NCBI GenBank assembly: GCA_900315425.1
Contig: OMZA01000009.1
Coordinates: forward strand, 964 to 64,963
Origin: an uncultured Eubacteriales bacterium
GTDB lineage: Bacteria > Bacillota > Clostridia > Lachnospirales > Lachnospiraceae
Reading direction: 5' to 3'
Length of the DNA: 64,000 bases
Shown here: positions 8,989 through 62,961 of the stretch, in pieces
Numbering within the stretch: the first letter of the stretch is position 1
How the letters are laid out: each line of letters opens with the position of its first letter
The notes under the pieces: generated by a model
Databases searched by the model: none
Told to the model about the DNA's origin: nothing
What the model saw: the letters and a program-made list of their open reading frames with translations, nothing else
Translations under genes and position numbers: made by a program

Positions 8989-9005
8989 AATATACCTGCC
9001 TTAAT

Positions 9006-9710: not shown

Positions 9711-9720
9711 ATTGACCTCC

Positions 9721-10439: not shown

Positions 10440-10442
10440 TTA

Positions 10443-11433: not shown

Positions 11434-11448
11434 TAATAAAAAATAAAA

Positions 11449-11492
11449 CAAACTCTTCGAAGTCTGGGAATTTTAAGACTTCGAAGAGTTTT
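11449..11492. terminator. Bidirectional terminator between rbr and nadC
   Basis: AAACTCTTCGAAGTCT...AGACTTCGAAGAGTTT, A-rich left and T-rich right flanks. Confidence 0.85.
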
Positions 11493-11497
11493 TATTT

Positions 11498-43025: not shown

Positions 43026-44579
43026 TTGAGCAGAGAAATGATTCTGGTCCTTGATTTTGGAGGACAGTACAATCAGCTTATCGCCAGAAGAGTTCGTGAA
43101 TGTAACGTATATTGCGAAGTTCATTCATATACAATGACTCTGGATGAAATTAAGGAAATGAATCCTAAGGGAATCATTTTCACAGGTGGACCAAATAGCG
43201 TATATTTGGAGACTTCACCATCATATTCAAAAGAAATATTTGATTTGGGAATACCGGTTCTTGGTATTTGCTATGGATCACAGCTTATGGCACATTTACT
43301 TGGAGGAAAGGTTTCAACTGCACCTGTAAGTGAGTATGGTCATACAGCTACAGAAATCACAGAAGAGTCCATGCTTTTTAAGAATATCAAATCAAATATC
43401 AATGTATGGATGAGCCATACTGACTATATATCACAGGTTCCAGAAGGATTTAAGATTACAGCTCACACTGCCAATTGCCCTGTTGCAGCTATGGAAAATG
43501 CTCAGAAGAAGTTCTATGCAACCCAGTTTCACCCAGAGGTTATGCATACTGAGCAGGGTAAAGATATGCTCCGAAATTTTGTTATAGATGTTTGTGAATG
43601 TAGTGGAGATTGGAAGATGGATAGCTTTGTTGAAACTACCATTAAAGATCTCAAGGAAAAAATAGGAAACGGTAAGGTTTTACTTGCTCTATCAGGTGGA
43701 GTTGATTCTTCGGTAGCAGCTGCACTTCTTGCCAAAGCTGTTGGTAAACAGCTTACATGTGTATTTGTTGATCATGGTCTTCTTCGTAAGGATGAGGGTG
43801 ATCAGGTTGAGGAAGTATTTGGTCCTCAAGGAGAATTCGACCTTAATTTTATCCGCATAAATGCAGCTGATCGTTACTATGCTAAACTTGCCGGTGTAAC
43901 AGAGCCTGAAAAAAAGAGAAAAATTATTGGCGAAGAATTCATTCGTATTTTTGAAGAAGAGTCTAAGAAGATTGGTACAGTGGATTTCCTTGCTCAAGGA
44001 ACCATTTACCCGGATGTTATTGAATCTGGTCTTGGTAAATCTGCTGTAATTAAGTCGCATCATAATGTAGGAGGACTTCCTGAAGACGTTGATTTTAAGG
44101 AAATAGTTGAGCCTTTAAGAATTTTGTTCAAAGATGAGGTTAGAAAAGCAGGTCTCGAATTAGGTCTTCCTGAACATCTTGTGTATCGTCAGCCATTCCC
44201 TGGTCCGGGTCTTGGAATCAGAATAATCGGTGAAGTAACTGCCGAGAAAGTTAAAATTGTTCAGGATGCAGATGCTATTTACCGTGAAGAGATTGACAAA
44301 GCATTTGACGAAGGAAAGATGACTGCAAAACCAAATCAGTATTTTGCAGCTTTGACCAATATGAGATCTGTTGGAGTAATGGGAGACTTTAGAACTTACG
44401 ATTATGCTGTTGCTCTTCGAGCAGTGAACACATCAGATTTCATGACAGCTAGTTGTACAGAGATTCCATTTGAGGTACTCCAAACAGTAATGAACAGGAT
44501 TATTAATGAGGTTAAAGGAGTTAACAGAGTAATGTATGACTTAACTTCAAAACCACCTGGAACGATAGAGATGGAATAA
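43026..44579 (+). CDS. guaA: GMP synthase
   Basis: [42 protein letters not shown]; TTG start. Confidence 0.98.
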
Positions 44580-44589
44580 TAACGGACAG

Positions 44590-44659
44590 AAATGCCGAAA
44601 GCCTGTATTTATGCGGGTTTCCGGCATTTATTTTATCAAATGGCTCTACTTTGGCTCTA
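44590..44659. repeat. Hairpin plus TGGCTCTA direct repeat immediately after guaA (att-end-like)
   Basis: AAATGCCGAAAGCC...GGGTTTCCGGCATTT, then TGGCTCTA at 44641 and 44652. Confidence 0.6.
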
Positions 44660-44723
44660 TTTGTGGGCGGAGTAATAGAATAAATACTTATAAGATTTTC
44701 ATTTTAGGAAGGTATAGTGTAAT

Positions 44724-45584
44724 ATGGAACGATTATTTACCAGGAATGAGACCGAAAATAATGAAATAGTATCGAAGTTGTTTATCGGTATATTTATATT
44801 TGTTTTATTGGTATGGACGCTCTGTTGGTGTGGTGTGTTTGATTTTGATATACAAGTAGCATCTATCTTTTTATGTATATCAGCGATCTTTTTATTAACG
44901 CCTTATGTTTTCATTTATGTATTCCATTTAAATTCCAAAGGCATGAAATATATATTGATTCTTAATCTATCACTATGTATAGGAGTCTGTTATTATATTT
45001 TTACTTTCCAAATGGTAATAATGTTGATACTTCCGTTTTTGGTAGCAATGTTATACATGAACAAGAGACTTCTGTATTTTTCGGGTGCTATTAATTTTGT
45101 TATTGTTGTGATAGCACATTTTGTTTCTGCATTATTTGTGCTACAACCTTGGTTAGAACCATTTATTGGGATCAAAAATGTAATCCGTTTTGATCTGATT
45201 CCAAGAATTATGCAATTAGGTATATGTTTTGTATTGCTTTTTGTATTGATGAACAGAATGTTAGCTTATATGGAACAGTTAAAATGTATTAATGAAGAAT
45301 TAATGAATGAGGTTAGCTTAACCAATAAAAATCAAAGTGCGGAAAGAAAAGAGTTGGAAGGGTATTTGTCTTGTTTGACAGATAGGGAAAAAGAGATATT
45401 TATACAAATGCTTCAGGGCAAGACAAATATGCAGATTGCAGAAAGGTTATGCCTTTCAAGTGGAACAGTTAAAAACTATGTTTCATCTGTATATGATAAA
45501 ATTGGTATAAAAGAACGAAACTATCTTATTCTTAAATTTGGGCATATAATAGCAGATTATGACCAAAGTAATGAGGGAAAATGA
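44724..45584 (+). CDS. Polytopic membrane protein with C-terminal LuxR-type HTH
   Basis: About 5-6 hydrophobic helices, then LTDREKEI...GKTN.QIAERLCLSSGTVKNYVSSVYDKIG. Confidence 0.85.
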   Translation: MERLFTRNETENNEIVSKLFIGIFIFVLLVWTLCWCGVFDFDIQVASIFLCISAIFLLTPYVFIYVFHLNSKGMKYILILNLSLCIGVCYYIFTFQMVIMLILPFLVAMLYMNKRLLYFSGAINFVIVVIAHFVSALFVLQPWLEPFIGIKNVIRFDLIPRIMQLGICFVLLFVLMNRMLAYMEQLKCINEELMNEVSLTNKNQSAERKELEGYLSCLTDREKEIFIQMLQGKTNMQIAERLCLSSGTVKNYVSSVYDKIGIKERNYLILKFGHIIADYDQSNEGK

Positions 45585-45647
45585 CCGTAGTTACTTCACA
45601 ATTTTTGATATATTAGTTATTTTTGACTTAATATCGAAAGGAGTGGT

Positions 45648-46448
45648 GTGAAAATGAGATTTTTTGATAGTAATGAAAGTAGAAGAAAAAGGAAAGTTGG
45701 CAGATTTATATTGGTAACTATCGTATGCCTGTGTTTAATTTGTTTTATTAATTTTATACCTACTTTTAATTTAGAAACATCTAATATGTCTTTGTTAGAA
45801 GGAAAGTGGGTAAATGTATATTATGAGACAGAAAAAGATGCGGCTGAGGATGTGTTTCAATATGCAGATGCTGAAACAGAGGATATTGCTGAAAAGTTGG
45901 GTTTTGACAAAAAACAAAATATCAATATATACATATATGATCACCAAAGCACAATGCAAAAAAAGAAATATGGTTATATCGGTCCGTTGTTAGGTTTGGA
46001 TTGGTATATTGGGGATAATATCGGTACAGATGTAATCTTAACATCACCAGCAAATCCAGGAAAGGTACACGATTATGATAATAACAAATATGCTGTTCTT
46101 CATGAAATTGTACATGCATACATTAGTGTGAAAAATCCTAATATTCATTTGTGGTTGACCGAAGGAATGGCTTTATATTTGAGCAATGGCGAGGAGTTTT
46201 ATAAAGAGTATTTAGAAGAAATGAAAATTCCGACATATGAAGATACGTGTACAAGGAATCCTATTCGCTTTTCAAATTGTGGAGGATATACATTTGCAAA
46301 TACCTACATAGAATATTTGGAATCAACATATGGTTGGAGTAAAGTTTTAGAATTAATTGAGACGGAAAAGTATGAGCAAGTATTTGGGAAGAGTTCAGAG
46401 GAGATATATGATGAGTGGGTTTTGTATTTGAACAACTATTATCAGTAA
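45648..46448 (+). CDS. Exported or anchored zinc metallopeptidase (gluzincin, peptidase MA-like)
   Basis: N-terminal TM, HEIVH followed by WLTEGMA. Confidence 0.75.
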   Translation: MKMRFFDSNESRRKRKVGRFILVTIVCLCLICFINFIPTFNLETSNMSLLEGKWVNVYYETEKDAAEDVFQYADAETEDIAEKLGFDKKQNINIYIYDHQSTMQKKKYGYIGPLLGLDWYIGDNIGTDVILTSPANPGKVHDYDNNKYAVLHEIVHAYISVKNPNIHLWLTEGMALYLSNGEEFYKEYLEEMKIPTYEDTCTRNPIRFSNCGGYTFANTYIEYLESTYGWSKVLELIETEKYEQVFGKSSEEIYDEWVLYLNNYYQ

Positions 46449-46500
46449 TTCTCTTGTACTGGAAAAAAGAAGGATGATTAAATTATCAAGAGGGTAGACA

Positions 46501-47310
46501 ATGCAAAAAGCTATAATCGTAGGGTGTTCTGGAAGCGGAAAGAGCACTTTGTCCAGAAAAATACATACATTAACAGGACTACCGCTATATCATTTGGATA
46601 ATATTTTTTGGAGGGCGAATAAAACTCGTATCTCAAGGGAAGAATTTGATGGAAAATTAGCTGAGATTCTTCATCGCGACAGTTGGATCATTGATGGCGA
46701 TTATAATAGAACGTACGAGCCTCGCATCGCTGCATGTGACACAGTGATCTTCTTAGACTATGCAGAAGAAGTATGCATGGAGGGAATAACCAATAGAGTC
46801 GGTCAAAAACGTGAAGATATGCCATGGGTAGAGGAGAAAGTGGATCCAGAACTTGTGGAGCTTGTAAAAGAATTCGATAAGAAGCATAAACCTAAGCTTC
46901 TGGCGCTGTTAGCCAAGTATCCGGAGAAGAGAGTTGTCACTTTACATTCAAGGGATGAGGCGTATAAGTGGATGTTGAAGGAGTTTGTTATTGGTGCTAC
47001 GGTGGAAGGCCATGTTGACAGGCCGCTTGGAACAGCACACCCTGACTATCCGACCATGGTTTATCCAATCAATTATGGTTACGTAGACGGAATAATGGCA
47101 GAAGATGATGAAGAGCAGGATGTTTACATTTTGGGTAGCGATAAGCCGTTGGCTACATATAAAGGGGAAATAATAGCTGTTTATCATCGTACAAATGATA
47201 ATGAAGATAAATGGATTGTTTCATTAGGTGATAGGGACTATGCGGATGAAGAAATTCTTGAGGCTATACATTTTCAAGAAAAGTATTTTGAAGGGGAATT
47301 GCTGAGATAG
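46501..47310 (+). CDS. Fusion of an adenylate-kinase/FlaR-like P-loop domain and a family-I inorganic-pyrophosphatase-like domain
   Basis: GCSGSGKST, HLD..FW, WIIDG.Y; C-terminal DRPLG..HP...YPINYGY...DDEEQDVY...EDKW. Confidence 0.78.
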   Translation: MQKAIIVGCSGSGKSTLSRKIHTLTGLPLYHLDNIFWRANKTRISREEFDGKLAEILHRDSWIIDGDYNRTYEPRIAACDTVIFLDYAEEVCMEGITNRVGQKREDMPWVEEKVDPELVELVKEFDKKHKPKLLALLAKYPEKRVVTLHSRDEAYKWMLKEFVIGATVEGHVDRPLGTAHPDYPTMVYPINYGYVDGIMAEDDEEQDVYILGSDKPLATYKGEIIAVYHRTNDNEDKWIVSLGDRDYADEEILEAIHFQEKYFEGELLR

Positions 47311-47367
47311 CAATTTACAAAGGAGATTTCGTGATAAAGGCACATAATCAGGCGGTAAATGTGTTTA

Positions 47368-47421
47368 TTGACATCACCATTTTATAAAGATATAATTACG
47401 TATATACGTACGCAGTACGTC
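47368..47421 (+). promoter_or_regulatory. Consensus sigma-A promoter with a palindromic operator at the start site
   Basis: TTGACA-17-TATAAT (47368-47396); TACGTATATACGTA (47397-47410) and a further TACGT. Confidence 0.75.
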
Positions 47422-47452
47422 AAGACGTTGCTGTAAGAAGGAGGGGATATTT

Positions 47453-47896
47453 ATGGCATATCCGGAAATAAATATCAACGAATTGATTGCAAAACTTGAT
47501 TCGGCAGACTTTTATAAGGAATATGGAAATCCTGTAAGATGCAAGATTTTTGACACGGATAAAATCCTTTTGGCTTTTGATTTGTATGAGCGACTGTTTG
47601 GCGAAGTTGATATTGATAAGGAACAAACAATAGAAATGGATGACTTTATTAGAGCGTTGGTGTTGCAAAGATTGGATGATAATCCAGTAAGGGTTACTGA
47701 TAAAGAGGACGGATATTCTCTTTCTATGGAGACAGAAGTGTATGATTACTTAGCTCGAATCGCTATGAAAGATTATGGGGTTACCCTTGAAGAATTGATG
47801 AACAATTATTTAGTGTGGATGGTTGCGTGCCCAGAGGAGTTTCGGGCGTGGGTAGAACAAAATATGATGGAGAGAGGAAACGAAAATGACAATTAG
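47453..47896 (+). CDS. Hypothetical protein; possible Phd/YefM-like N-terminus and RHH-like C-terminus
   Basis: Good SD and ATG; fold resemblance judged by eye only. Confidence 0.5.
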   Translation: MAYPEININELIAKLDSADFYKEYGNPVRCKIFDTDKILLAFDLYERLFGEVDIDKEQTIEMDDFIRALVLQRLDDNPVRVTDKEDGYSLSMETEVYDYLARIAMKDYGVTLEELMNNYLVWMVACPEEFRAWVEQNMMERGNENDN

Positions 47897-48218
47897 TGAA
47901 CGTATTTTTAAACTAATGGAAGAACGTGAGATTGCTCAGACGGACTTTTCAAAAGCTACTGGAATTGCGCAAAGTACTATTAGTGACTGGAAACGTAAGA
48001 AAACGAATCCGTCTGCGGATAAGATAATGATTATTTGTAAAGTATTAAATGTAACGCCATACGAGCTGCTCCAGGATACAGTTCAATCAGTGGAAGAATT
48101 GGATTATCGAGTGGTTTCAAAAGGTACAAAGGAATATGATTTTTTGATTGAAATGGAAAGCCTTAAGAAATCGCAAAAAGAAAGATTGTTGGGGTATATA
48201 GAGGCATTAAAACAATAG
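47886..48218 (+). CDS. XRE/Cro-CI HTH regulator
   Basis: QTDFSKATGIAQSTISDWKRKKTNPSADKIMIIC.VL. Confidence 0.88.
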   Translation: MTISERIFKLMEEREIAQTDFSKATGIAQSTISDWKRKKTNPSADKIMIICKVLNVTPYELLQDTVQSVEELDYRVVSKGTKEYDFLIEMESLKKSQKERLLGYIEALKQ

Positions 48219-48336
48219 AGTGTTGTGGAAGATTTTGGAGTCAGTTGTCAAGAATTCCTTTAATACTGCCGGAGATGAATTATGTTACTTGAGAAAAGTA
48301 GTGGTGACAAGGAAAAAGTGACAGGGGGTAAATAGA

Positions 48337-48914
48337 ATGGAGATAAAAAAAGATAAAGTTCAATTATTTGAAGAACAACCAATTAGAACGGCATGGGTAG
48401 AAGACGAGGAAGAATGGTATTTTTCTATCGTGGATGTAGTGCGTGTGTTAACAGAACAACCCAATACGGATGGTGCAAGAAATTATTGGAAAGTATTAAA
48501 GAACAGAATGAAAGAAGAGGGAAATGAACTGGTTACAAATTGTAACCAGTTGAAAATGAGGGCTCAAGATGGAAAGATGAGATTTCTAAAGCCTGGTCTG
48601 GGATGACCACTCGTGAATATAAGAATCTTAAAGGGCTGAAAAAAGAAAATCTCCGGGATAATATGTCTACATTGGAACTTGTACTTAATATGCTGGCGGA
48701 GGCCACCACTACAGAGATTTCAAAGCAAAAGAAACCGGGAACTTTTGAGGAAAATCGAGTGGTTGCAATTGAGGGAGGGGAGGCTGCCGGGGAAGCAAGA
48801 AATGCAGTTGAAAAGCGTACCGGAAAGTCTGTGATCACTAGTAAGAATGCCACGCAATTACAGGATTTGGTTGCTGGGTTGATTGATGCAGACCTTAGGG
48901 AAGACAATAATTGA
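48337..48914 (+). pseudogene. Bro-N domain (phage antirepressor-like) gene with internal deletion and frameshift
   Basis: N-terminal WYFSIVDVV..LT...NYWKVLK..DGKMR joined out of frame to DEISKAWSGMTTREYK.LKGLKKENLRDNM. Confidence 0.78.
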
Positions 48915-48931
48915 TAAAGTGAGATGAGGGT

Positions 48932-49579
48932 ATGAGTAAATCTTTAAGTATTTTAATACTGTTGCCGATGAATGATTATAATAGTGCGGACGTCTATTGT
49001 GAGGATAATCGGTTAAAACAAATATATGGTGAAGTGCCTGAGATAGATAATTATTTTAAAACCTTAAAGATGCGTTCAGTATATACTTCAGGGAAGGATC
49101 TCGAAGTGTATTTTCAAAAAAAGTATCAGCTGGAAAAAGAAGAATTTAAAAATTATTCTATTAGTTATAACGGTAGAGAATATAATTACCATTTTAGGAA
49201 TGGTACAACTATACAATTAACAACCGAAGAGGATGAAAAACTTAAGCGGGAACATGTTGATGAGGGTGTTTATTGTCTTCCTTACAAATGTTTAGCTGTG
49301 GATATATATGGTTCGGTTATAAGCAAATTATTGAGTGATACATTTACCATTATCGACGATGAATTGATTGACAGGGCAATAAAACTGATTGGATGTCAAT
49401 ACAGTTCCGATTTGGATTTTGAAGAAGCAGGTTCAAAACATGGATTTTTGGGGGATAATGCGTTTGATATCGAATTGGATTACGAAGGTGATATGGATGG
49501 AAAGCTTCTTATCAGCCTTATAGTTGGAAAGTATATGGCTGAACGTGTTAAAGGAATAGCAGTTGCGGAATATGATTAA
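48932..49579 (+). CDS. Hypothetical protein
   Basis: 215 aa ORF with GAGG SD; no recognised motif. Confidence 0.6.
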   Translation: MSKSLSILILLPMNDYNSADVYCEDNRLKQIYGEVPEIDNYFKTLKMRSVYTSGKDLEVYFQKKYQLEKEEFKNYSISYNGREYNYHFRNGTTIQLTTEEDEKLKREHVDEGVYCLPYKCLAVDIYGSVISKLLSDTFTIIDDELIDRAIKLIGCQYSSDLDFEEAGSKHGFLGDNAFDIELDYEGDMDGKLLISLIVGKYMAERVKGIAVAEYD

Positions 49580-49594
49580 GGATAGACGAAAACA

Positions 49595-49780
49595 ATGCTC
49601 AAAGAAAATGACAGAGTAAAAACACTTGTAGAAAAAGAGGGATTTCCTGCGGGTACAATTGGAGTTGTTGTAAGTATTTATTCTGAGGGCTCGCAATGTG
49701 AAGTTGAGTTATGGGACGCTGATGAATATCCACTTGATGTTGTGACGTTTAGCTTTGATGAGATTATAAGCGTTGAATAA
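49595..49780 (+). CDS. Small acidic protein, DUF4926-like
   Basis: D.V......G.PAGTIG.VV.IY....CEVE pattern. Confidence 0.55.
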   Translation: MLKENDRVKTLVEKEGFPAGTIGVVVSIYSEGSQCEVELWDADEYPLDVVTFSFDEIISVE

Positions 49781-49952
49781 AGAAGGAACGTTACATTAAC
49801 GATGGTTGATTGTAGTATCACGGTGATACCCCTTATGATACTATTATGATACTATTTCTTCGAAAAACACAAGAAATACAAGGCATTTCAAACAATTGTG
49901 AAAAATAAGGATGCCGTATTTAACATGATTTACCTTGAAAAATAAATTTAGA

Positions 49953-49970
49953 ACTACCGAGATGGAGTAA
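49953..49970 (+). repeat. guaA 3'-end copy 1 (attR-like)
   Basis: ACTACCGAGATGGAGTAA versus guaA ACGATAGAGATGGAATAA (44562-44579). Confidence 0.8.
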
Positions 49971-50332
49971 TGCGTCTTTTGACTCATAATGTGCTGAATT
50001 ATTCTGAAGTACTTGAAAGCAGCATGCGTTCTTCGGAATGCCTGCTGTTTTTTGTTATCAGCATTGATAACGATCTGATTTACACATAAGGTTACGGTGG
50101 TGGGGAGCAATACCCGCCGCTTTTTCTGTATGCAGCATTCCTTTTGTTGCGGCTTACGGGGTAGTATTATTGAACTTGAGCATGTCGTAGGTCTCATCCG
50201 AATCGAACAGCTGGTACATGAGTCTTATTGTTTGCATGACCGCATGACGGCATAAAAGCACTTGAATATTTTTGGGGTACTTTTTTTTGGCTTTATATTG
50301 ACAAAATGCAGAAAAGATGTATTATAATTAAT

Positions 50333-50356
50333 GTTATATAACGATAGTTACATAAC
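50333..50356. promoter_or_regulatory. Tandem palindromic boxes, likely TetR operator
   Basis: GTTATATAAC (50333-50342) and GTTACATAAC (50347-50356) between promoter and SD. Confidence 0.5.
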
Positions 50357-50369
50357 GGAAAGGAGAAAA

Positions 50370-50963
50370 ATGTGTATGCCGCCCAAAACAAGAATTACGA
50401 AAGACATGATCATAAATGCGGCTATTGAGATTGCAAAACAAAGTGGATATGAGAGCATCAACGCCAGGACAGTCTCTGAGCAGCTCCACTGTTCCACGCA
50501 GCCGGTCATGTATCATTTTTCGACAATTGATGCCTTGAAACGGGCTTCTTACGCACAAGTTGATCATCTGCATTCAAAGTATCTGATGACGATGATACCG
50601 GAACAGGATCCGATCCTTGGGATAGGCTTGAATTATATCCGTTTCGCCGTGGAGGAGCCTCAGTTATTCCGCTTCCTGTTTCAGTCCGGATATGCGGTGG
50701 AGCACAGCTTGTTGGAGATGATCGATTCCGAAGAACTGATCCCGGTCCTTATTGCCATGCAAGAGGGCACCGGATTGAGCATGGAAAAAACCAAGCAGAT
50801 ATTTCTGACCGTGGCGCTGTTTGCGCACGGCTATGCCAGCATCATTGCCAACAATGGTCTGGAATATGACGAAAAACTGGTCGCGGAGCACCTGGAACGG
50901 GCCTGGAACGGTGCTTTTCTCGTGGCTGTGCAGGAGGAGAAGAAACATGAAAAAAATGTATGA
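50370..50963 (+). CDS. TetR/AcrR-family regulator
   Basis: ITKDMIINAA.....SGYESINARTVSEQLHCSTQPVMYHF; start placed at ATG 50370; higher GC. Confidence 0.88.
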   Translation: MCMPPKTRITKDMIINAAIEIAKQSGYESINARTVSEQLHCSTQPVMYHFSTIDALKRASYAQVDHLHSKYLMTMIPEQDPILGIGLNYIRFAVEEPQLFRFLFQSGYAVEHSLLEMIDSEELIPVLIAMQEGTGLSMEKTKQIFLTVALFAHGYASIIANNGLEYDEKLVAEHLERAWNGAFLVAVQEEKKHEKNV

Positions 50964-51696: not shown

Positions 51697-51845
51697 AAAA
51701 ATCATTCATTGGTGGAATGGCTTTAGGGGCATTTCTGGTATCGCTGATCCCGTACAGAGTTCAGACACACGAAAAGACCGGTTATGCATTTGCCATTCCT
51801 CCGTCCGGACTGGACGAACAATATTTCCTAAACGGAATCAGTTAA
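51693..51845 (+). CDS. Short, possibly truncated membrane or exported protein (50 aa, MKKSFIGGMALGAFLVSLIP...)
   Basis: ATGA overlap with the CPBP stop and GGAG SD; ends just before a guaA-end copy. Confidence 0.4.
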   Translation: MKKSFIGGMALGAFLVSLIPYRVQTHEKTGYAFAIPPSGLDEQYFLNGIS

Positions 51846-51853
51846 GTCCTGTC

Positions 51854-51865
51854 GAGATGGAATAG
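51854..51865 (+). repeat. guaA 3'-end copy 2 (attR-like)
   Basis: GAGATGGAATAG at the high-GC to low-GC transition. Confidence 0.72.
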
Positions 51866-51923
51866 ATAAATGTATTTTATAAAATACTTATTGACTGTGC
51901 TGATAAATACGGGATATAATATT

Positions 51924-52053
51924 AAAGGTTTAGGGAGTAGCTCGCATAGGTATTATGCGATATATTTCGTCAGTACGGGATTTAATCCCCGGGATATGTC
52001 ATAAGTAGCGAGACTTTACCACAGTTTATCTGTGGTGGAGTCTCGCTTTTTTT
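51924..52053 (+). promoter_or_regulatory. yybP-ykoY (Mn2+) riboswitch with terminator expression platform
   Basis: GGGAGTAGC, CGTCAGTACGGG...CCCGG, AGCGAGACTTT; terminator GCGAGAC...GTCTCGC-T7; promoter TTGACT-18-TATAAT at 51891-51920. Confidence 0.82.
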
Positions 52054-52074
52054 ATTGCTTGGAAGGAGGAAAAA

Positions 52075-53052
52075 ATGTTTTTAGTAAGTATTTTTATTTT
52101 AGTTGTTGGTTTTGTAGCCTTAATAAAAGGCGCTGATTGGTTTGTTGATGGAAGTTCGGCTATGGCGAAAACGCTTCATGTGCCAGGGGTGATAATCGGT
52201 TTGACGATAGTAGCACTTGGAACAAGCGCACCTGAATTAGCGGTAAGTACACTTGCAGCTCTTCAAGGGTCAAATGAGATAGCTATTAGTAATGTTGTTG
52301 GCTCTAACATATTTAATCTATTGTGTGTGTTGGGTGTTTGTTCTCTAATATATCCTGTGCCAGTTGAGAAAGGAATATTAAACAGAGATTATCCGGTGAC
52401 AATAGCAGTTACAGTCATTGTTTTGTTGGGAGCTTGTTTTAAAACTTTATTTTCCACAGGATGGGTGCATATAGATATGGATTCAAATGTGGGATTGATT
52501 AGTAGACCATTGTCGATTGCACTTTTGTTATTATTTATTGCTTATATTGTGTATCTGATTATTGATGCTAAAAAGAATCCGACAGAAGATGATGATATAG
52601 ATGTACAGCCATTATGGAAAAGTGTTGTATTGATAATCATTGGAATTATGTTGATTATAGGTGGAGGTCAGGCTGTTGTATATGCTGCAAAGGCAATTGC
52701 GAGAACCTTTGGAATGACTGAGACTTTAATTGGACTTACGATAGTTGCGGTAGGAACATCGCTTCCTGAATTGGTTACATCTATTGTTGCAGCTAAAAAA
52801 GGTGAGACTGGAATGGCTGTCGGAAATGTTGTTGGATCAAACATCTTTAATATGATGTTTATTCTGGGGCTTTCCTCATTGATTAATCCAATTGATGTAA
52901 ATATGGCATCATTGTGGGATTTGATAATACTGGTCATAGTAAGTGTAATTGTATACGTTTTTTCCGGTACAAAAAGAAACATAGGAAAACGAGAAGGGGC
53001 GATTATGCTCTTGATATACTTGGCTGACATGGTATTTGCTATTCTACGATAA
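52075..53052 (+). CDS. Ca2+:cation antiporter (YrbG/CaCA family)
   Basis: Two alpha repeats GTSAPE...NVVGSNIFN and GTSLPE...NVVGSNIFN. Confidence 0.92.
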   Translation: MFLVSIFILVVGFVALIKGADWFVDGSSAMAKTLHVPGVIIGLTIVALGTSAPELAVSTLAALQGSNEIAISNVVGSNIFNLLCVLGVCSLIYPVPVEKGILNRDYPVTIAVTVIVLLGACFKTLFSTGWVHIDMDSNVGLISRPLSIALLLLFIAYIVYLIIDAKKNPTEDDDIDVQPLWKSVVLIIIGIMLIIGGGQAVVYAAKAIARTFGMTETLIGLTIVAVGTSLPELVTSIVAAKKGETGMAVGNVVGSNIFNMMFILGLSSLINPIDVNMASLWDLIILVIVSVIVYVFSGTKRNIGKREGAIMLLIYLADMVFAILR

Positions 53053-53062
53053 AAGGAGAGAG

Positions 53063-54694
53063 ATGATGAGCTTATACAATTATATTTCTGTCATAGGTGG
53101 ATTGGCATTTTTCTTGTTTGGAATGACAGTGCTTTCATCTGGATTAAAGAAGGTTGCGGGAGATAGACTGGAATCTGTTTTGAAAAAAATGACAGATAAT
53201 CCATTGAAAGGATTGATGTTTGGAGCAGTTATAACGATTGCAATGCAATCTTCTTCGGCATTAACTGTTATGTTGGTTGGATTGGTGAACTCTGGAATTA
53301 TGGCACTTGCGCAGACGGTTGGAATCATAATGGGTTCAAATATAGGAACGACACTAACTGCCTGGATTCTCAGCTTGAGTGGAGTACAGACAGATAATGT
53401 GTTGCTTTTGATGTTAAAGCCGGAGTATTTTTCACCTGTACTAGCTCTTGTTGGTGTAATCCTGATTATGGGTGGAAAGGATGATAAAAAGAAGAATCTT
53501 GGATATGTATTAATTGGATTTTCGGTTTTGATGCATGGGATGAATTGGATGTCGGATTCTCTTTCGCCCCTTGCAGATATGCCGGAATTTACAAGTATCT
53601 TAACCGCATTTGATAACCCATTGTTAGGCGTATTAATAGGTACTGTTTTTACAGGAGTAATCCAATCGTCGGCAGCTTCTGTCGGTGTACTTCAGGCATT
53701 AAGTTTGACAGGACATATTTCTTATGGGGTGGCTATTCCGATTATTATGGGACAAAATATAGGAACCTGTGTCACGGCTTTAATATCCTCTATTGGTGTT
53801 AGTAAAAATGCTAAGAGAGTTTCTGTGATACATATAAGTTTTAATGTGATAGGAACTGCAATTGGTTTGGTGATTTACTTTATATGCAGAGGTTTGTTCC
53901 AACTTACTGTATTTGATGAAATGATTACACCGTTCGCGATTGCAGCATTTCATTCAGCTTTTAATATTATGACAACATTGATTCTGCTTCCTTTTTCTAA
54001 ACATTTGGTATATATTGTTGAACATTTGATTAAAAAAGATAATGCGAAAACCGCTTTCTTGGATGAACGACTGTTAGTTTCGCCGGCGATTGCTGTAACC
54101 GAATGCCGAAAGAAGACGATGGAAGTTTTAAATGTGTCTGTTGAGGGAGTTTCAAAGGCAATGGCAATGTTGGAGAGCTATGATGAGAATACCAAAGATG
54201 AGCTCCGTCAGTTAGAAGTTGATGTGGATGGAATGGTAGAAGGATGTAATCAGTTCTTGATTCGATTATCATCCAAAGAGATATCAAACAGAGAGAGCAT
54301 AGTTGTAGCAAATATGCTTCACGCTTTGGGAGACATGGAACGAATCAGTGATTATTCGTTAAACCTGATTTCAGTAGCTAAGAAGGTAAATAAATCTACA
54401 ATTGAAATAAGGAATGAAATATGGTCTCTTGTATCGCCTTTGATTATGGAGTTGAATCATATTTTGGAAATGACACGATTGGTTTATGTAGAAGGTGATG
54501 CAAAAAAAGCATCTGAAATCATAGAAGAAACAGATAAACTCATACAGAAGATAAAGAAAGTAAAGAAATCTGATTTGAAATTATTACGAAATGGCGAAGG
54601 ATATGCAGAATCAAGCGTTTATATTTCAGATTATCTTTCAGTACTAAGGCGTATAACGGAGCACAGTCAAAATATAGCAGAGTCATTGATCTAG
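53063..54694 (+). CDS. Na+/Pi cotransporter (NptA/YjbB family) with PhoU-like C-terminus
   Basis: QSSSA...GSNIGTT and QSSAA...GQNIGTC repeats, DMERISD; start placed at ATG 53063. Confidence 0.9.
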   Translation: MMSLYNYISVIGGLAFFLFGMTVLSSGLKKVAGDRLESVLKKMTDNPLKGLMFGAVITIAMQSSSALTVMLVGLVNSGIMALAQTVGIIMGSNIGTTLTAWILSLSGVQTDNVLLLMLKPEYFSPVLALVGVILIMGGKDDKKKNLGYVLIGFSVLMHGMNWMSDSLSPLADMPEFTSILTAFDNPLLGVLIGTVFTGVIQSSAASVGVLQALSLTGHISYGVAIPIIMGQNIGTCVTALISSIGVSKNAKRVSVIHISFNVIGTAIGLVIYFICRGLFQLTVFDEMITPFAIAAFHSAFNIMTTLILLPFSKHLVYIVEHLIKKDNAKTAFLDERLLVSPAIAVTECRKKTMEVLNVSVEGVSKAMAMLESYDENTKDELRQLEVDVDGMVEGCNQFLIRLSSKEISNRESIVVANMLHALGDMERISDYSLNLISVAKKVNKSTIEIRNEIWSLVSPLIMELNHILEMTRLVYVEGDAKKASEIIEETDKLIQKIKKVKKSDLKLLRNGEGYAESSVYISDYLSVLRRITEHSQNIAESLI

Positions 54695-54704
54695 ATTTTT
54701 AATT

Positions 54705-54935
54705 ATGCCTATTAGAGACATGAGAAATACAAGTGCTCTTTCAGAACTTGCGCATAAACAACAGGAACCTATTTTTATAACAAAGAAGGGTTATAGTGAT
54801 TTGGTTGTTATGAGTGCAGAGTACTTTGATCGATTTGCTAGAGAAAATCGTATTGACCAGGCGATTTTTAGAATTAATGAAAACAGAAAGGTTGTATATG
54901 TAGTAACCGTTCAGGATCAAGGGAGGGATTTATAA
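54705..54935 (+). pseudogene. Chimeric remnant: Phd/YefM antitoxin N-terminus fused to a RelE/ParE-like toxin C-terminus
   Basis: PIRDMRNT...EPIFITKKGYSDLVVMS.EYF then FRINENRKVVYVVTV.DQ.RD. Confidence 0.62.
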
Positions 54936-55049
54936 CCTAAAGTACTGTTTGAGTAATAGGAGATATAAAATACAGATAATACGAATAAAAGATTAACAAA
55001 TATGTTAACGAAAACTATGAGAAAAAGGTTATTCCATCAACCCGTTGCG

Positions 55050-55061
55050 GAGATGGAGTAG
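55050..55061 (+). repeat. guaA 3'-end copy 3 (attR-like)
   Basis: GAGATGGAGTAG followed by AAAAGCCCGTATTTAAGGGCTTTT, a hairpin resembling the one after guaA. Confidence 0.78.
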
Positions 55062-55139
55062 AAACTTTTTGAAAAAGCCCGTATTTAAGGGCTTTTTCTT
55101 AATTTTAAACCCCCATATTATTTGCGTGGTTGGGGCTGA

Positions 55140-55235
55140 AAAGTAAAAGACTATTTCGGACACCAAGACACAGAAATGTTAAACAAGGTCTATGCAAGGC
55201 TGAATACAATGCAGAAAGCCGACTATATAAAGCAT
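55140..55235 (+). pseudogene. C-terminal fragment of a tyrosine recombinase/integrase
   Basis: KVKDYFGHQDTEMLNKVYARL, matching the box II H-x9-Y pattern; preceded by in-frame TGA at 55137. Confidence 0.6.
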
Positions 55236-55303
55236 TGTTTCCGTTATCGTTATCATTGTAATATAAAGAGGGTGGCTAACCTTGCCTTTGTGCTGATTGT
55301 GGG

Positions 55304-55594
55304 CTATGGTTGCCGCCTTTTTACTTTCTTTTGTTGCTTTTCCTCTATTCGTTTTAATCCCTCGTTTCTGTATAGGGCGTTTAACTCGTTTTCCTCATAG
55401 GTTATTATATCCTCTACATTACATTGTAGTATGCTACAAAGTTTATCTATGGTGGTTGTGTTGATTGGTTCGTTTCTTTGCAGTTTAGTTATCAATCGTG
55501 GCGATAATTCAAAGTAATGTGTAAGGGTGTACTTTGTCATTCCCTTTTGCTCTAATGTTTTCCAAAGTTTCTGATAATGTATTCCCATAAGCAT
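55304..55594 (-). CDS. Cro/C1-type HTH regulator
   Basis: YQKLWKTL...MTKY.L......PRLITKLQRNEPIN..TIDKLC.ILQCNVEDII. Confidence 0.8.
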   Translation of the reverse strand: MLMGIHYQKLWKTLEQKGMTKYTLTHYFELSPRLITKLQRNEPINTTTIDKLCSILQCNVEDIITYEENELNALYRNEGLKRIEEKQQKKVKRRQP

Positions 55595-55712
55595 AAACCC
55601 CTTTCAAATTGCTTTAAATAACACTTGCATTTTATCGTATAGGCATTTATACTTTTAGCTGTATTATCGTATAGCCATACGATAGTATCACTAAAAAGTG
55701 AGGTATTGAAAA

Positions 55713-56405
55713 ATGGTGAAAAGAACAATAGTAACATTATTAACCGCTATTCTTTGCTTTTCCCTTTGCTCTTGTGGTAAAGAGAACGCAAAGCAGAGCC
55801 AAGAGCCGACAAAAACAGCGGAAACTGCACAAGAGAGCGATAAGAGCCAAGAGGTAACAGATACAGAGGTGACAGCAACAACAGAAGCCGCAACGAATGA
55901 AACAGCATTTACAGATGTTTCTATGGGGGAAACTATCAGCCTTGACTATGTGGAAATGAGTTTAGAGAGGTTAGAGGTTGCGGATAGATACGATTTTTCA
56001 TACACAGAAGATACATCAGTTGGCACAAGCACAAATAGTGTTAGTTTAGAGCCGAGTGGGGATTTAATGTTGGTATCTCTTATAGGTACATTTCAAAATA
56101 AAACAAATAAAGACTACTATACAAGCAACAATGGCGTATTTGGCAAAATGATAATAAATGGCAATGAATACAATGCAAGGTTTGAGTGTTATGATACAGA
56201 ACAAGCAGAAAGTTATTTAAAAGTAGCCGCACAACAAAAGACATCATACTTTCTTTATGCAGAAGTGCCGCAAGAGGTAGCGGAAAACATAGAAGATTGT
56301 GTAGTACAGTTTGGATTTACACAAGATTTTGAGAGTAAACCGATAGGCAAGGTAGAGGATTTAGATAGTATTTATCAGTTATCTGCTATACCAACAAAGA
56401 GCTAA
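55713..56405 (+). CDS. Lipoprotein with Thr/Glu-rich linker
   Basis: Signal peptide with lipobox SLCSC; GAGG SD. Confidence 0.78.
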   Translation: MVKRTIVTLLTAILCFSLCSCGKENAKQSQEPTKTAETAQESDKSQEVTDTEVTATTEAATNETAFTDVSMGETISLDYVEMSLERLEVADRYDFSYTEDTSVGTSTNSVSLEPSGDLMLVSLIGTFQNKTNKDYYTSNNGVFGKMIINGNEYNARFECYDTEQAESYLKVAAQQKTSYFLYAEVPQEVAENIEDCVVQFGFTQDFESKPIGKVEDLDSIYQLSAIPTKS

Positions 56406-56514
56406 GAAGTAACAGTTGAAACACACACAGCAGAAGAAATAGAAGAAAAGCAAAGAGCGAGAGACGCATATTATTTTCAACAAGAGTTAGAGAAAAGAGA
56501 TAAATAAAGAATTA

Positions 56515-56820
56515 AGGGCGACTAATGAAGGCACAGGTAATTTCAGTAGTGCAGGCATAGGACTTGGAATGATGGCCGGTGTTGGTGGAAGTGTCGGCAG
56601 TGCATTTGGCACAGCTTTTTCAGGAGCTTTGAATGGTATACAGCAAAATACGACAGACTTATTCTGTGAAGAATGTGGTGCACAGATATTACCGGGTGCA
56701 GAGTTTTGCGATGAGTGTGGACATCCATTAAATAAGGGCGAAAATACATCCCCTAAATGTGGTTATGCATTTGAAAGACCGGGAAAGTTCTGCCCTAAAT
56801 GCGGAACTAAGAGAGGATGA
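56515..56820 (+). pseudogene. 5'-truncated gene retaining an SPFH-like tail and double zinc ribbon
   Basis: NEG.G...AGIGLGMM glycine-rich motif, then CEECG..FCDECG..KCG..FCPKCG; no SD/ATG in front. Confidence 0.6.
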
Positions 56821-57055
56821 AGCCTATGGGAAAATCTAAGATAATAAAATGTGTGATCTGGTTTTTTATAGCCGTAATGGATCATCAATTCCATTTAAAA
56901 CGTCATTAATTATTAACTTCGTTGTAATGGTCATAGCATGGATTATTCTCTTGATGATGATTTTGTCAAAAGATCACGTTGAAAGAATAGACTCCCGGCA
57001 AAAGGATCATCATGTGGAGTTGTAATACATAGTTTTTTAAGAGGAGGATTACAAA

Positions 57056-58408
57056 ATGAAACAGCTGACCTGTGAAATGTGCGGTGGAACAGATTTGATC
57101 AAGCAGGATGGTATATTTGTATGCCAAAACTGTGGAACGAAGTATTCTGTTGAAGAAGCAAAAAAAATGATGATTGAGGGGACTGTAGATGTTACTGGCT
57201 CCACTGTAAAAGTTGATGATTCGGGTAGAATTGAAAACTATATGACGATGGCTAATAATGCCTACGCTTCTAGTAATAATAAAGAAGCAGAAGAATACTG
57301 TAACAAGATTATCGAAATTGATCCAATACATCCCGAAGCTTGGTTACTAAAGGGCATTGTAGCGGGTTGGCAATCTACTAGCAGAAATATTCGTATGGAT
57401 GAGTTTCTCTCATGCGTAAAAAATTCTTTATCAAACGCTAAGACAACCGAAGATTTGGATGATTTGGCTGATCGAGCATATAAAGAATATTATAATCTGA
57501 CATTAGCTATTAATAAGCTAAAGGTAGATTCAGTTGTATCCTATTCAAAGAATTGGAAAGATTATATTTCTTTCCCCCCTATATTCTTAATGTGGGGTAT
57601 TAATATTCAAATAGCGTATGCTACTGCATACAAGGCACTAAACACTGATAAAGGAGATGATGTTAAACCACGTTATCTTAGCGAGGAGTTGGGGCTTGAT
57701 GATCTGTATATTAAATGTAAAGAAACCCTTATTTCAGGGGGGATAAAGTTGTGGAATTCTTCATTGCATGATTATGAAAGCAATGGATATCCCACAGATT
57801 TTATGTTAGATCGCATGATGGAAGAAGGTAAAATTGCAATGCTGATGCTAAATTATGTTATTCCTTCTGACACTTCGAAAATCACAGACAATGAAAAGCC
57901 TAACATTATTAAAGCTTGCAAAAATCTGATTACAATGAAAACAGTTTGGATGGACCTTAAGTCGTATACTGTTAGTTTTTATAACGGGGTTGAATCGCAT
58001 CCGGTGAGCAAGTGCATTACAATGCAGTCAAAGCAAGAAGTAACAGCGGAAATTAGAAAGTATCATGATATTATTAAACTTTGTGACCCATCCTATGTGG
58101 TACCAACTGTAGACGATCCCAAACCGCAGGCGGCTAATGGCGGATGTTATGTTGCTACAGCGGTATATGGTTCTTATGATTGTCCGCAGGTTTGGACACT
58201 TAGAAGATATCGCGATTATGATTTAGCGGAAACCTGGTACGGTCGAGTGTTTATTCGTACATACTATGCAATTAGTCCGACTCTCGTGAAATGGTTTGGT
58301 CATACTGAATGGTTCAAACGGATATGTAGAGGGAAACTTGATCGTATCGTTAAGAATCTTCAAGATAAAGGATTCGAGTCAACTCCATACGAAGATAAAG
58401 CTTGGTAA
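57056..58408 (+). CDS. Zinc ribbon, TPR-like helical region and CFI-box-CTERM-like domain protein
   Basis: CEMCGG...CQNCG; helical repeats (AEEYCNKIIEIDP...AWLLKG); GCYVATAVYGSYDCPQVWTLRRYRD. Confidence 0.78.
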   Translation: MKQLTCEMCGGTDLIKQDGIFVCQNCGTKYSVEEAKKMMIEGTVDVTGSTVKVDDSGRIENYMTMANNAYASSNNKEAEEYCNKIIEIDPIHPEAWLLKGIVAGWQSTSRNIRMDEFLSCVKNSLSNAKTTEDLDDLADRAYKEYYNLTLAINKLKVDSVVSYSKNWKDYISFPPIFLMWGINIQIAYATAYKALNTDKGDDVKPRYLSEELGLDDLYIKCKETLISGGIKLWNSSLHDYESNGYPTDFMLDRMMEEGKIAMLMLNYVIPSDTSKITDNEKPNIIKACKNLITMKTVWMDLKSYTVSFYNGVESHPVSKCITMQSKQEVTAEIRKYHDIIKLCDPSYVVPTVDDPKPQAANGGCYVATAVYGSYDCPQVWTLRRYRDYDLAETWYGRVFIRTYYAISPTLVKWFGHTEWFKRICRGKLDRIVKNLQDKGFESTPYEDKAW

Positions 58409-58435
58409 TAGAGGTTTGATGGAAGGTCACAAAGA

Positions 58436-58672
58436 ATGAACAAACGGATAGATTATAATGTTTTGATAGAAGAAATAAAAAAATGTGGTGACATAGTTGT
58501 TGATCAGAAACTTGCAATAAAATTATTAAAAGATGAATTGCCAAAATCGTGTTTTGATAAAAATTATTTAATGCGTGGTCGTAATGCGCTTGGAAGATTC
58601 TTAATTGAAAATGCAGATATATATGAGACAGAGTTTATTAGACCCCAAATAATAATCAAAAAAAAGCAATGA
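58436..58672 (+). CDS. Small hypothetical protein
   Basis: 78 aa ORF with GGAAGG SD. Confidence 0.5.
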   Translation: MNKRIDYNVLIEEIKKCGDIVVDQKLAIKLLKDELPKSCFDKNYLMRGRNALGRFLIENADIYETEFIRPQIIIKKKQ

Positions 58673-59036
58673 TTGGTCATAGCTAAAAAAATGAGTGATA
58701 TTTCTCAATATAAGAATATGAGAAGCATATATTATACTTTAGTATTGATATGTTTTATTACGTGTATGCGACTGAGACTTCTTAAGGAAAGGAAATGCCA
58801 ACGTGAGTCGGTTCATTACTATTTTGATGAAGCGATGTACAGTTTCGAATTATTATTCCGATATTAGATAGTTGACTATTAACTGCTAAGAAGAATAATT
58901 TCAAAAACGTTCATCAAAGTTTTATAGCTATATAAAGGTGGAATCATATTTTATCAGAAATGGCTGTGCCGGTCGGGCATGGTCATTTTCTTATGGATAA
59001 AAGTGTGAATTTCGATTATAATTATGGACAATGTGA

Positions 59037-59318
59037 CGCCGGAACAATTCATTACTGAGATACGTAAGCCAATCCAAGAGTGACATCCAGAAGGGCATTC
59101 AGAGTGACAATGACACTCTGAGTGGCACTCTGAACCATTCAGACGCGCAAAAAGATACCCTAAAAGTTCTGATAAGACAGAATAATAAAATAACAAGGAA
59201 GCAGATGGCAGAGACCTTAAACGTGAGTGAGAGGACAATTCAAAGGTTAATAAACGATATGCCGGAGATTTCTTTTACAGGCGGTGGTCGCAGTGGACAT
59301 TGGGAGATTGATGAATAG
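59037..59318 (+). pseudogene. Orphan C-terminal winged-HTH fragment (Fic/AlbA-type regulator tail)
   Basis: Open frame without start: NNKITRKQMAETLNVSERTIQRLIN...GGGRSGHWEI. Confidence 0.6.
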
Positions 59319-59496
59319 TGGGTTTGATTTGGAGGTTACAAACTATGTTGCCAACCAAGTTGGTGATCAAGATACATGTAACGTCTCTAAAATGTCTATC
59401 AAAAATCTTAAAAAGCCGTGGACGTGCTGGAATAATCGGAATATTTATATCAGATATACCGTTTTATAGATTATAAAAACACAAGATATAGATGTT

Positions 59497-59514
59497 ACTA
59501 CCGAGATGGAGTAG
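59497..59514 (+). repeat. guaA 3'-end copy 4 (attR-like; distal island boundary)
   Basis: ACTACCGAGATGGAGTAG, 17 bp identical to copy 1. Confidence 0.8.
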
Positions 59515-60527: not shown

Positions 60528-60562
60528 AATAGTTTTAAACTATTTCAAACCTCTATTTTTTT
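60519..60562 (+). terminator. Perfect 18 bp hairpin/terminator containing a MetR-box-like core
   Basis: AGAGGTTTGAAATAGTTT-T-AAACTATTTCAAACCTCT plus T-rich tail. Confidence 0.7.
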
Positions 60563-60645
60563 GTATTTTTCATATGGCTCAAAGTTATTTATACTTATAC
60601 CCAATAAAACCTACAAGAAAAATAGGAATATAAAGGAGGCTATCA

Positions 60646-62916: not shown

Positions 62917-62961
62917 AAATCGGGGTGGCTTCTCGCCCTGATTAAAAGAAAGGGAATTAGA

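Follow-up and report, generated by a model that had tools for sequence, protein, structure and literature searches.

A repeat-bounded array downstream of guaA in an uncultured Lachnospiraceae bacterium, probably formed by tandem accretion of integrase-free modules

The DNA examined here, a stretch of 64,000 nucleotides from an uncultured Lachnospiraceae bacterium (contig OMZA01000009.1 of assembly GCA_900315425.1; "the window" in what follows), carries in order uvrA, guaA, about 15 kb of mixed cargo, a LysR regulator, metE, and metF. The cargo is partitioned by direct copies of the last codons of guaA, the gene for GMP synthase, and very probably (about 0.8) represents the tandem accretion of modules resembling cis-mobilizable elements (CIMEs) at an attachment (att) site at the guaA 3' end; the modules are called CIME-like because they are att-flanked cargo devoid of an integrase. 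The main support comes from same-species strains, whose sequences break and rejoin at the repeats in different combinations, and from related Clostridia, in which elements encoding tyrosine integrases occupy the same site.

The guaA tip repeat

The 12-mer GAGATGGARTAR occurs in five exact copies in the window, all on the plus strand, at 44568, 49959, 51854, 55050, and 59503 (copies 1 to 5; Table 1). A re-count agreed with an earlier note on this DNA, made from the sequence only, both on these positions and on the ending of guaA in IEME followed by a stop codon. The rarity of the motif, on which that note relied, is borne out: the window has no further exact copy, dinucleotide-preserving shuffles contain 0.06 copies on average and one at most, and 613 kb of same-species sequence holds 82 copies on the plus strand and 0 on the minus strand, in 22 distinct combinations of left and right flanks. 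Copies 2 and 5, at 49959 and 59503, share the 17-mer ACTACCGAGATGGAGTA, in agreement with the 17 bp identity reported before. The GC content rises at copy 2 and falls again at copy 3; between the two, module B reaches 0.50 vs ~0.35-0.38 around it, as expected for the high-GC block described earlier. The statement that the copies always lie outside real genes is approximately correct; copy 3 is the stop of a small, probably spurious open reading frame (ORF; 51644-51865), and an unannotated minus-strand ORF overlaps copy 2.

At recombinant junctions the two R positions of the motif, bases 9 and 12, are those of the right-hand partner, so that crossovers fall within or to the left of the invariant GAGATGGA, which is likely to be the strand-exchange region. 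A loose end in GAGATGGA at 47506 was rejected as a tip copy, being coding sequence of a paralogue.

Strains and relatives compared

Strain comparison was based on ~60 same-species contigs, retrieved by exact-protein look-ups with GuaA alleles, Na_Ca_ex, the 450-aa protein of module D, and MetE, and compared with the window by BLAST. In public metagenome assemblies, 63 GuaA sequences form one 99% cluster with that of the window, one member being named "Lachnospiraceae bacterium"; the region itself comes from metagenomes of the bovine gut or rumen. A species-specific pattern for the end of guaA, scanned across metagenomes, retrieved a single locus; the look-up of GuaA allele P0125 gave only the Fic-type architecture already known from the set and that of allele P0130 a new architecture (L141), in both cases with no integrase. 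The nearest species representatives in GTDB (Lachnospira and other Lachnospiraceae) have a GuaA only ~78% identical to that of the window, whose own species is not among the entries; the GTDB species scan was therefore used for cross-species comparison only, and the cross-species set consists of 80 species-level guaA loci.

Contigs of metagenome-assembled genomes (MAGs) from other Clostridia often stop 40-130 bp past guaA (for example L008, L015, L040, L045, L046, L054, L062, L065, L067, and L078), which suggests that the guaA hotspot routinely breaks metagenome assemblies.

Strain breakpoints and combinatorial joining

The homology between the window and other strains breaks 0-6 bp from copies 1, 2, 3, and 5, the coincidence with the 12-mer that the earlier note had proposed as a check. 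Of approximately eight distinct breakpoints in the 15 kb, four are within 6 bp of a copy; a rough estimate puts the chance probability of this at < 1e-6. At copy 1, seven strain types (L099, L100, L103, L105, L125, L126, and L141) leave the window 0-39 bp past the guaA stop, with divergence points at 44579 in L103, 44578 in L105, 44584 in L100, and 44618 in L099; L113/L114, whose GuaA tip is IEFE, diverge inside the copy, after 44570. At copy 2, L108/L109 match the window only from 49958 rightwards and have on the left a SLFN_AlbA_2/HATPase module instead. At copy 3, the HAD-type strains (L097, L098, L110, and L111) regain homology at 51863-51865, the 3' edge of the copy. Finally, all strains have in common the sequence that starts at 59497, where ACTACC plus copy 5 begins, and three alternative module ends, those of D, Na_Ca_ex, and A, precede it.

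The same flanks are joined in many combinations. At least 10 alternative architectures are present downstream of guaA within this one species, so that the region is not stable core, and the guaA left flank is joined to at least eight different right flanks. In particular, the right flank composed of the terminator unit and module A follows guaA in the window, the D end in L120, and the end of a Fic/RhuM module in run X4; in L120 the D end meets the right flank of copy 1 and module A through a hybrid site, ACTATA-GAGATGGAATAA. The LysR-side flank is preceded by the D end in the window, by the Na_Ca_ex end in L001 and others, and by the A end in L116, X3, and X4, and the left end of module B by the A end or the SLFN/HATPase-module end. 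L126 has an independent four-copy array with cargo unrelated to that of the window, in order Fic with DUF4417, Fic/RhuM, SdpI with RelB/ParE, and a pair formed by a 147-aa and a helix-turn-helix (HTH) protein. At the level of sequence, these comparisons demonstrate that the repeats are recombination junctions and that modules are re-assorted between strains, as the earlier note had supposed in postulating serial site-specific integrations at the guaA 3' end.

The block made of the long form of C, copy 4, and D lies beyond module A, as seen from guaA, in the window but before it in L120; L116 has an A-type end beside LysR, downstream of D. These positions imply integration or re-integration at more than one copy, and the different module order contradicts the strict chronology, with the newest module next to guaA, that had been read into the array. 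A count of exactly four modules is also abandoned, given a separate ~100 bp unit after guaA, the mosaic structure of module A (breakpoint 48575), and a main indel, 53058-59496, that starts without a repeat.

This 6,439 bp indel segment is missing in L001-L006, L097, L098, and L107-L111, where AAAGGA is joined to ACTACCGAGATGGAGTAG. The joint of 53057 to 59497 co-exists with the long form within single samples (runs X1, X2, and X6), the A-end/LysR joint is present in runs X3 and X4, and contig L112, 100% identical to the window, stops at 53057. An interpretation of the 53057/59497 joint as a registered site-specific event via GAGATG at 53060 was rejected, the registers being different (2 nt vs 6 nt upstream). 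In low-depth contigs of runs X1, X5, X7, and X8, position 53925 is joined back to 49135 with six additional letters, ATTAAT, and not at a repeat; this joint may reflect a paralogous context or a further arrangement.

A second layer of rearrangement consists of IS21-family insertion sequences (ISs), which interrupt or truncate modules in some strains: the IS21 of L001/L107 adjoins a 208-aa gene, and in L116 and L119 module D is truncated by IS21 at the window equivalent of 58451. The breakpoint at 48575, seen in module A against L001/L107/L115, is associated with IS21 and a Bro-N deletion and coincides in the window with an internal deletion near 48575-48584.

The terminator unit and the GuaA tip alleles

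The ~100 bp unit that follows guaA in the window is 94-95% identical to positions 20253-20352 of L038, where it stands after the distal tip copy of an integrase-bearing element, and is identical over 61 nt to positions 2193-2253 of L065, directly 3' of guaA; nevertheless, the GuaA proteins of L038 and L065 are only ~73% identical to that of the window. In all three contexts the unit finishes at the same terminal base (at the end of GTGGGSRGAGTAAT) and unrelated DNA follows. The fixed end, the unrelated DNA beyond it, and the degenerate tip copy indicate a mobile mini-module and not the native sequence downstream of guaA, and arms 94-100% identical across species with ~73% GuaA identity indicate recent transfer. 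A terminator hairpin opens the right flank of many tip copies, such as copies 1 and 4 (55071-55098) and those of L126, L113, L141, L057, L049, and L055, consistent with elements that deliver a new guaA end and the terminator belonging to it.

Over the 80 species-level loci the GuaA tip is IEWE, IEFE, IELE, or IEME. Within the species of the window most contigs have IEME, P0132 (L113/L114) has IEFE, and one contig of run X4 has IELE; L113/L114 possess their own tip, GAGTTTGAGTGA, their own terminator, and different cargo. Tip allele and downstream element thus change together within the species, as expected if the element brings the tip, and the alignments suggest that incoming elements rewrite the last codons of the essential guaA, the penultimate residue being the one that varies.

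Integrase-bearing elements at guaA in relatives

L057 has a second copy of the host tip GAGTTCGAATAA 8.6 kb downstream of guaA, and between the two tips lie a divergent HTH gene, a 369-aa tyrosine integrase (domains Arm-DNA-bind_4, SAM_3, and Phage_integrase), a DUF3987 primase, a Mob_Pre relaxase, and RelB/ParE; this element is a classical integrative mobilizable element (IME). About 17 of the 80 loci encode homologues of its integrase a few kb or less past guaA, among them those of Blautia producta, Sellimonas, and Lachnospira multipara; in L049 and L038 a second tip copy lies at a distance of 8-9 kb. L061 and L055, both with an IEME tip, also have guaA-associated integrases. The right end of module A is 87% conserved over ~150 bp in L. 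multipara (L016), where it is followed by GAATTCGAA..., a decayed copy of the host tip GAATTTGAATAA and not GAGATGG; an element arm beside a host-specific old tip has the appearance of an attR site.

Two tandem units of ~20 bp, GGGCAAAGCAGATTATCC and AGGTAAACTGTCTTATCC, start 14 nt past the tip in L100, L103, and L105, and also in L056; they occur in L102, L106, and L133-L135 as well. The element family with these units, which stand at its guaA-proximal end, carries DUF5688 and EEP-nuclease-like genes. The units resemble the arm-type integrase binding sites of intact elements; the contigs that carry them end before any integrase. A scan of viral contigs for the arm-like motif AGGGCAAAGCAGATTATCCTC gave nothing.

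Two further elements were noticed. In L056, from another species with an IEME tip, a 3.9 kb module (8079-12024) lies between two identical tip copies; it encodes a retron-like or defence-like reverse transcriptase of 311 aa, a scan of two ORFs revealed no integrase, and an element with arm-like repeats follows, that is, the same array logic in a different host. The element designated S6 looks like a large conjugative element, whose integrase is probably beyond the 10 kb reach.

Absence of an integrase and nature of the array

The description of the array as integrase-free was upheld by each search. Pfam and PHROGs detected no integrase, recombinase, excisionase, relaxase, conjugation, or replication domain in array ORFs of at least 60 aa; tblastn with the L057 integrase found no match in the window; and a profile hidden Markov model built from 15 guaA-associated integrases, applied to >1,400 stop-to-stop ORFs of at least 80 aa, gave no hit, even with E <= 10 allowed, in either the 64 kb window or the same-species contigs, and it does detect distant Xer-like recombinases in control loci. 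The only mobility genes in the same-species arrays are IS21 and DUF772 transposases.

The array shares two features with CIMEs, since att-type direct repeats (five exact tip copies and a degenerate one) flank the modules at their junctions and genes for integrase, excisionase, relaxase, and conjugation are absent. Like an IME it is integrated at the guaA 3' end with direct repeats, but it has no integrase of its own, and no Mob, Rep, or relaxase domain was found with Pfam and PHROGs (oriT, the origin of transfer, was not searched for); lacking integrase and relaxase, it is not an IME. Neither is it an integron: an intI gene with attI and the promoter Pc is missing, as is any tyrosine recombinase in the 64 kb window; in place of attC sites there is a non-palindromic 12 bp tip copy with unrelated left flanks and no associated inverted-repeat pair; and the modules have their own promoters. 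The term "integron-like" used previously is consequently retained only as an analogy.

Proposed mechanism and alternative explanations

In the proposed mechanism, the interval between guaA and LysR-metE-metF would be an integration hotspot whose att site comprises the last four guaA codons including the stop. Elements that target the site would bring their own copy of the guaA tip, usually with a terminator hairpin after it; as they carry this copy, integration would rebuild guaA with element sequence and shift the old tip downstream. Repeated integrations, followed by the loss of recombination and transfer genes or accompanied by the capture of modules that never had them, would result in the order guaA, ~100 bp arm unit, modules A, B, C, and D, and LysR, with GAGATGGARTAR at each junction; the modules may thus have decayed from intact elements. 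The catalyst would most likely be a tyrosine integrase of the family that adjoins guaA in related Clostridia; an intact element, located elsewhere in the genome or present in the population, would provide it in trans. Excision or mobilization by such an enzyme, and hence present-day mobility, is plausible, and the best indirect evidence for recent movement may be seen in the differences in array position together with the joints that co-exist within samples.

Several observations weigh against this mechanism. An integrase is missing from all of the ~60 same-species contigs, which makes the catalyst hypothetical for this species. Copy 4, which the earlier note had counted as a boundary, is never a breakpoint; because its flanks are identical in every one of the at least nine contigs that contain it, its role as a junction is argued only from a layout (tip, terminator hairpin, minus-strand HTH gene) that mirrors the guaA-side junction of the integrase-bearing L057 element. 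HAD-type strains have no tip copy where homology rejoins at the edge of copy 3, and three breakpoints lie off the exact tip copies: 44679, with only the degenerate copy, 48575, and 53057. The last of these is the left end of the indel (53057/53058), 5 nt past the Na_Ca_ex stop, with neither a tip copy nor microhomology. The left flanks of the copies have no common arm sequence, GGAACTAYC being present in a subset only. No circular or excision junction appears in the contig data, and the raw-read runs X22 and X23 barely contain the organism. Lastly, the comparison data are all metagenome contigs, so that some joints could be assembly chimeras; the main joints recur across independent samples.

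Some of these points would also be expected if the repeats were inert scars of old integrations and the array were now fixed cargo, its strain diversity deriving from ancient independent integrations, from homologous recombination in the guaA, Na_Ca_ex, and LysR-metE flanks, and from IS activity. Such fixation, a possible but doubtful explanation, agrees with the lack of integrase in the window and in any same-species contig, with the IS21 copies at some rearrangement points, with the position of breakpoints 48575 and 53057 away from repeats, and with the lack of circular forms in contigs, the raw-read runs holding hardly any of the organism. However, the integrase-less block C-copy 4-D is on opposite sides of module A in L120 and in the window with flanks >99% identical, which implies that the block was recently inserted at least twice, at different tip copies; individual samples contain short and long forms, and A-end/LysR joints, side by side; and arms are 94-100% identical between species whose GuaA proteins are only ~73% identical.

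An extension of the accretion mechanism, speculative and on the whole unlikely, is that the guaA tip may be a population-level platform for cassette exchange, on which small integrase-less modules, equipped with no more than a tip mimic and often a terminator, would be captured, re-ordered, and passed between strains and species by integrases that never reside in the array. The array would then be functionally an "integron without its own integrase", with the rewriting of the GuaA C-terminal residue from IEWE to IEFE, IELE, or IEME as a side effect.

The involvement of another recombination system, namely a serine recombinase, a host Xer-type enzyme (as in integrative mobile elements exploiting Xer, IMEX), or an integron-like integrase elsewhere, is improbable. 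It could account for the failure to find a cognate integrase in this species, for the many module ends without shared arm sequence (the majority), and for the cassette-like look of short modules with a conserved 12 bp site. Nonetheless, the only recombinases that relatives have between tips or beside guaA are tyrosine integrases with an arm-binding domain, the 12-mer is neither dif-like nor palindromic, no intI or attC-like structure accompanies modules that have their own promoters, and arm-site-like tandem repeats are found 14 nt past the tip in three same-species element types. The recurrence of the 12-mer by chance or as a functional motif (a ribosome-binding-site-like GGAG plus stop codon, both within the motif, or a regulatory box), to which the small ORF ended by copy 3 might point, is already effectively refuted by strain comparisons, given five copies vs 0.06 expected with strict strand bias, their coincidence with homology breakpoints, and the repetition in other species of the host's own, different tip sequence.

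Modules, cargo, and right flank

The features of the window are collected in Table 1.

Table 1. Positions of the tip copies, modules, and genes in the window (coordinates of the 64 kb stretch).
Feature	Positions	Strand	Remarks
guaA	43038-44579	+	GMP synthase, 513 aa, ends ...PPGTIEME and stop; Pfam GATase, GMP_synt_C; 3' tip, putative attachment site
Copy 1	44568-44579	+	GAGATGGAATAA; present guaA tip and stop codon
Terminator unit	44580-44679	+	~100 bp, probably mobile; terminator hairpin; ends in degenerate tip copy TGGGCGGAGTAA
Sixth copy, degenerate	44667-44678	+	TGGGCGGAGTAA; 8/12 matches; also behaves as junction
Module A	44680-49958	+	Right end ...TTTAGAACTACC; left boundary 44679 vs HAD-type strains
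A: LuxR/GerE regulator	44724-45584		Pfam
A: Peptidase_MA-like	45648-46448		Pfam
A: P-loop-like protein			269 aa
A: 147-aa + HTH pair	47453-48218		
A: Bro-N/PDC-S13	48337-48914		Split pseudogene; Pfam, PADLOC
A: 215-aa protein			
A: DUF4926	49595-49780		Pfam
Copy 2 with 5' extension	49953-49970	+	ACTACC-GAGATGGAGTAA
Module B	49971-51853	+	GC 0.48-0.52
B: TetR-family regulator and CPBP/Rce1-like membrane protease	~50331-51696		Pfam
Copy 3	51854-51865	+	GAGATGGAATAG
Module C	51866-55049	+	
C: structured leader	51891-52047		Promoter and terminator
C: Na_Ca_ex cation antiporter	52075-53052		Pfam
Indel segment	53058-59496	+	6,439 bp; presence/absence between strains and within single samples
C: Na/Pi cotransporter	53066-54694		With PhoU domains; Pfam
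C: Phd/YefM-like antitoxin	54705-54935		Pfam
Copy 4	55050-55061	+	GAGATGGAGTAG; then terminator 55071-55098 and divergent HTH gene
Module D	55062-59502	+	Right end ...GATGTTACTACC
D: HTH_26 regulator	55304-55594	-	Pfam
D: 230-aa protein			
D: zinc-ribbon protein	56569-56820		Pfam
D: 450-aa protein	57056-58408		N-terminal zinc ribbon
D: additional small ORFs			
Copy 5 with 5' extension	59497-59514	+	ACTACC-GAGATGGAGTAG; distal array end
Conserved right flank	59625-63819	+	99.2-99.9% identical in all same-species contigs
LysR-family regulator	59625-60527		Pfam
metE	60646-62916		Pfam
metF	62962-63819		Pfam

In module A, which is mosaic, the Bro-N/PDC-S13 gene is represented by two ORFs, one of 89 aa for the N-terminal part and one of 103 aa for the C-terminal part of a protein that is intact (290 aa) in L115 (961-1833). 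The 147-aa + HTH pair occurs, at ~81% identity, at a second chromosomal place downstream of pdxST (L110, L111, L115, and L117), and also in other arrays and species (L016, 18519-19257; L126, 20672-21437); the two genes may form a regulatory or toxin-antitoxin-like unit carried along by these elements. Window-type, L001-type, and L108-type strains have module B, which HAD-type strains lack. In runs X22 and X23 (bovine, without the host) the mapped reads lie only in or beside this high-GC module, at 49924-52259, so that B-like DNA seems to be present in other organisms. PADLOC and PHROGs indicated no confident defence system or mobile-element backbone for the cargo, except for the split Bro-N/PDC-S13 gene and the HTH regulators, and no homology of the cargo to known backbones of IMEs or of integrative conjugative elements (ICEs) was found.

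Within module C, only 51865-53057 is common to all strains that reach LysR. The Na_Ca_ex leader (51891-52074) has a near-consensus promoter at 51891-51920 and an intrinsic terminator with an 18 bp stem at 52007-52047, and folds far better than shuffled sequences (z = -6.1). The manganese riboswitch formerly assigned to this block was not recovered: the yybP-ykoY family (RF00080) has no match at the Rfam gathering score and none at E <= 1 in 16 kb, and a focused search of 231 nt gave 17.3 bits (E 0.005) against a gathering threshold of 45 bits, a match that vanishes once the 3' half is removed. The leader is a possible divergent riboswitch or attenuator.

Relation to known systems and significance

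The guaA 3' end is an established target of IMEs and islands with tyrosine integrases in Firmicutes, Actinobacteria, and Proteobacteria, such as the streptococcal Tyr_3 IMEs, ATE-1 of Trueperella, GIsul2, and the Brucella IncP island, and both CIMEs, att-flanked elements that have lost integration and transfer genes, and a three-step accretion model have been described for streptococci (PMC5704250, PMC5357655). With the guaA IMEs and the L057 element the window shares the target at the guaA stop codon, the replacement tip supplied by the element, and the short direct repeats as flanks; in contrast to them, its modules encode no integrase, relaxase, or replication protein and would be remnants of, or riders with, such elements. 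In the reviewed accounts of the ICESt1/ICESt3-related elements at the fda 3' end of Streptococcus thermophilus (Pavlovic 2004; Bellanger 2011; reviewed in PMC5704250), the fda CIMEs are likewise cargo that lies between direct repeats of a conserved gene's 3' end and has no genes for integration or transfer; site-specific recombination has stacked them in tandem, in combinations that vary by strain. Unlike them, the window stacks four to five modules that all lack an integrase, and neither the array nor any sampled strain contig contains an intact ICE or IME; moreover, its target is guaA, its host is an uncultured rumen Lachnospiraceae, and cis-mobilization is putative.

A close functional analogue is provided by the composites of staphylococcal cassette chromosome (SCC) and pseudo-SCC elements. 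These are module arrays at the 3' end of rlmH (orfX) in staphylococci, each module being bounded by the gene-tip repeat; some SCC-type modules have no recombinase genes and rely on recombinases in trans, which in SCC are large serine recombinases (Ccr), whereas the relatives of the window host have tyrosine integrases at guaA. As in integrons, small gene modules are ordered in one direction and separated by a short recombination site; unlike integrons, there is no adjacent intI, attI, or Pc, the 12-mer is not a folded attC-type site, the modules are multi-gene with their own promoters and terminators, and their order is no simple record of insertion.

Since accretion, CIMEs, and guaA as a target were already established, the array adds to known biology and does not alter it. 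Its notable features are how many integrase-less modules are stacked, the occurrence of at least 10 architectures within a single uncultured species, and a polymorphism of the GuaA C-terminus that is linked to the element. Its sequence alone reveals a gut or rumen commensal that builds and reshuffles, at a single 12 bp site, a strain-specific island of regulators, ion transporters, toxin-antitoxin genes, and defence-like genes. The guaA tip repeat offers a marker for delimiting islands in Lachnospiraceae MAGs, where contigs often break right after guaA, and the locus is a natural test bed for the movement in trans of integrase-less modules. The GuaA C-terminal residue that tracks the downstream element is, in turn, an example of mobile elements editing the end of an essential gene.

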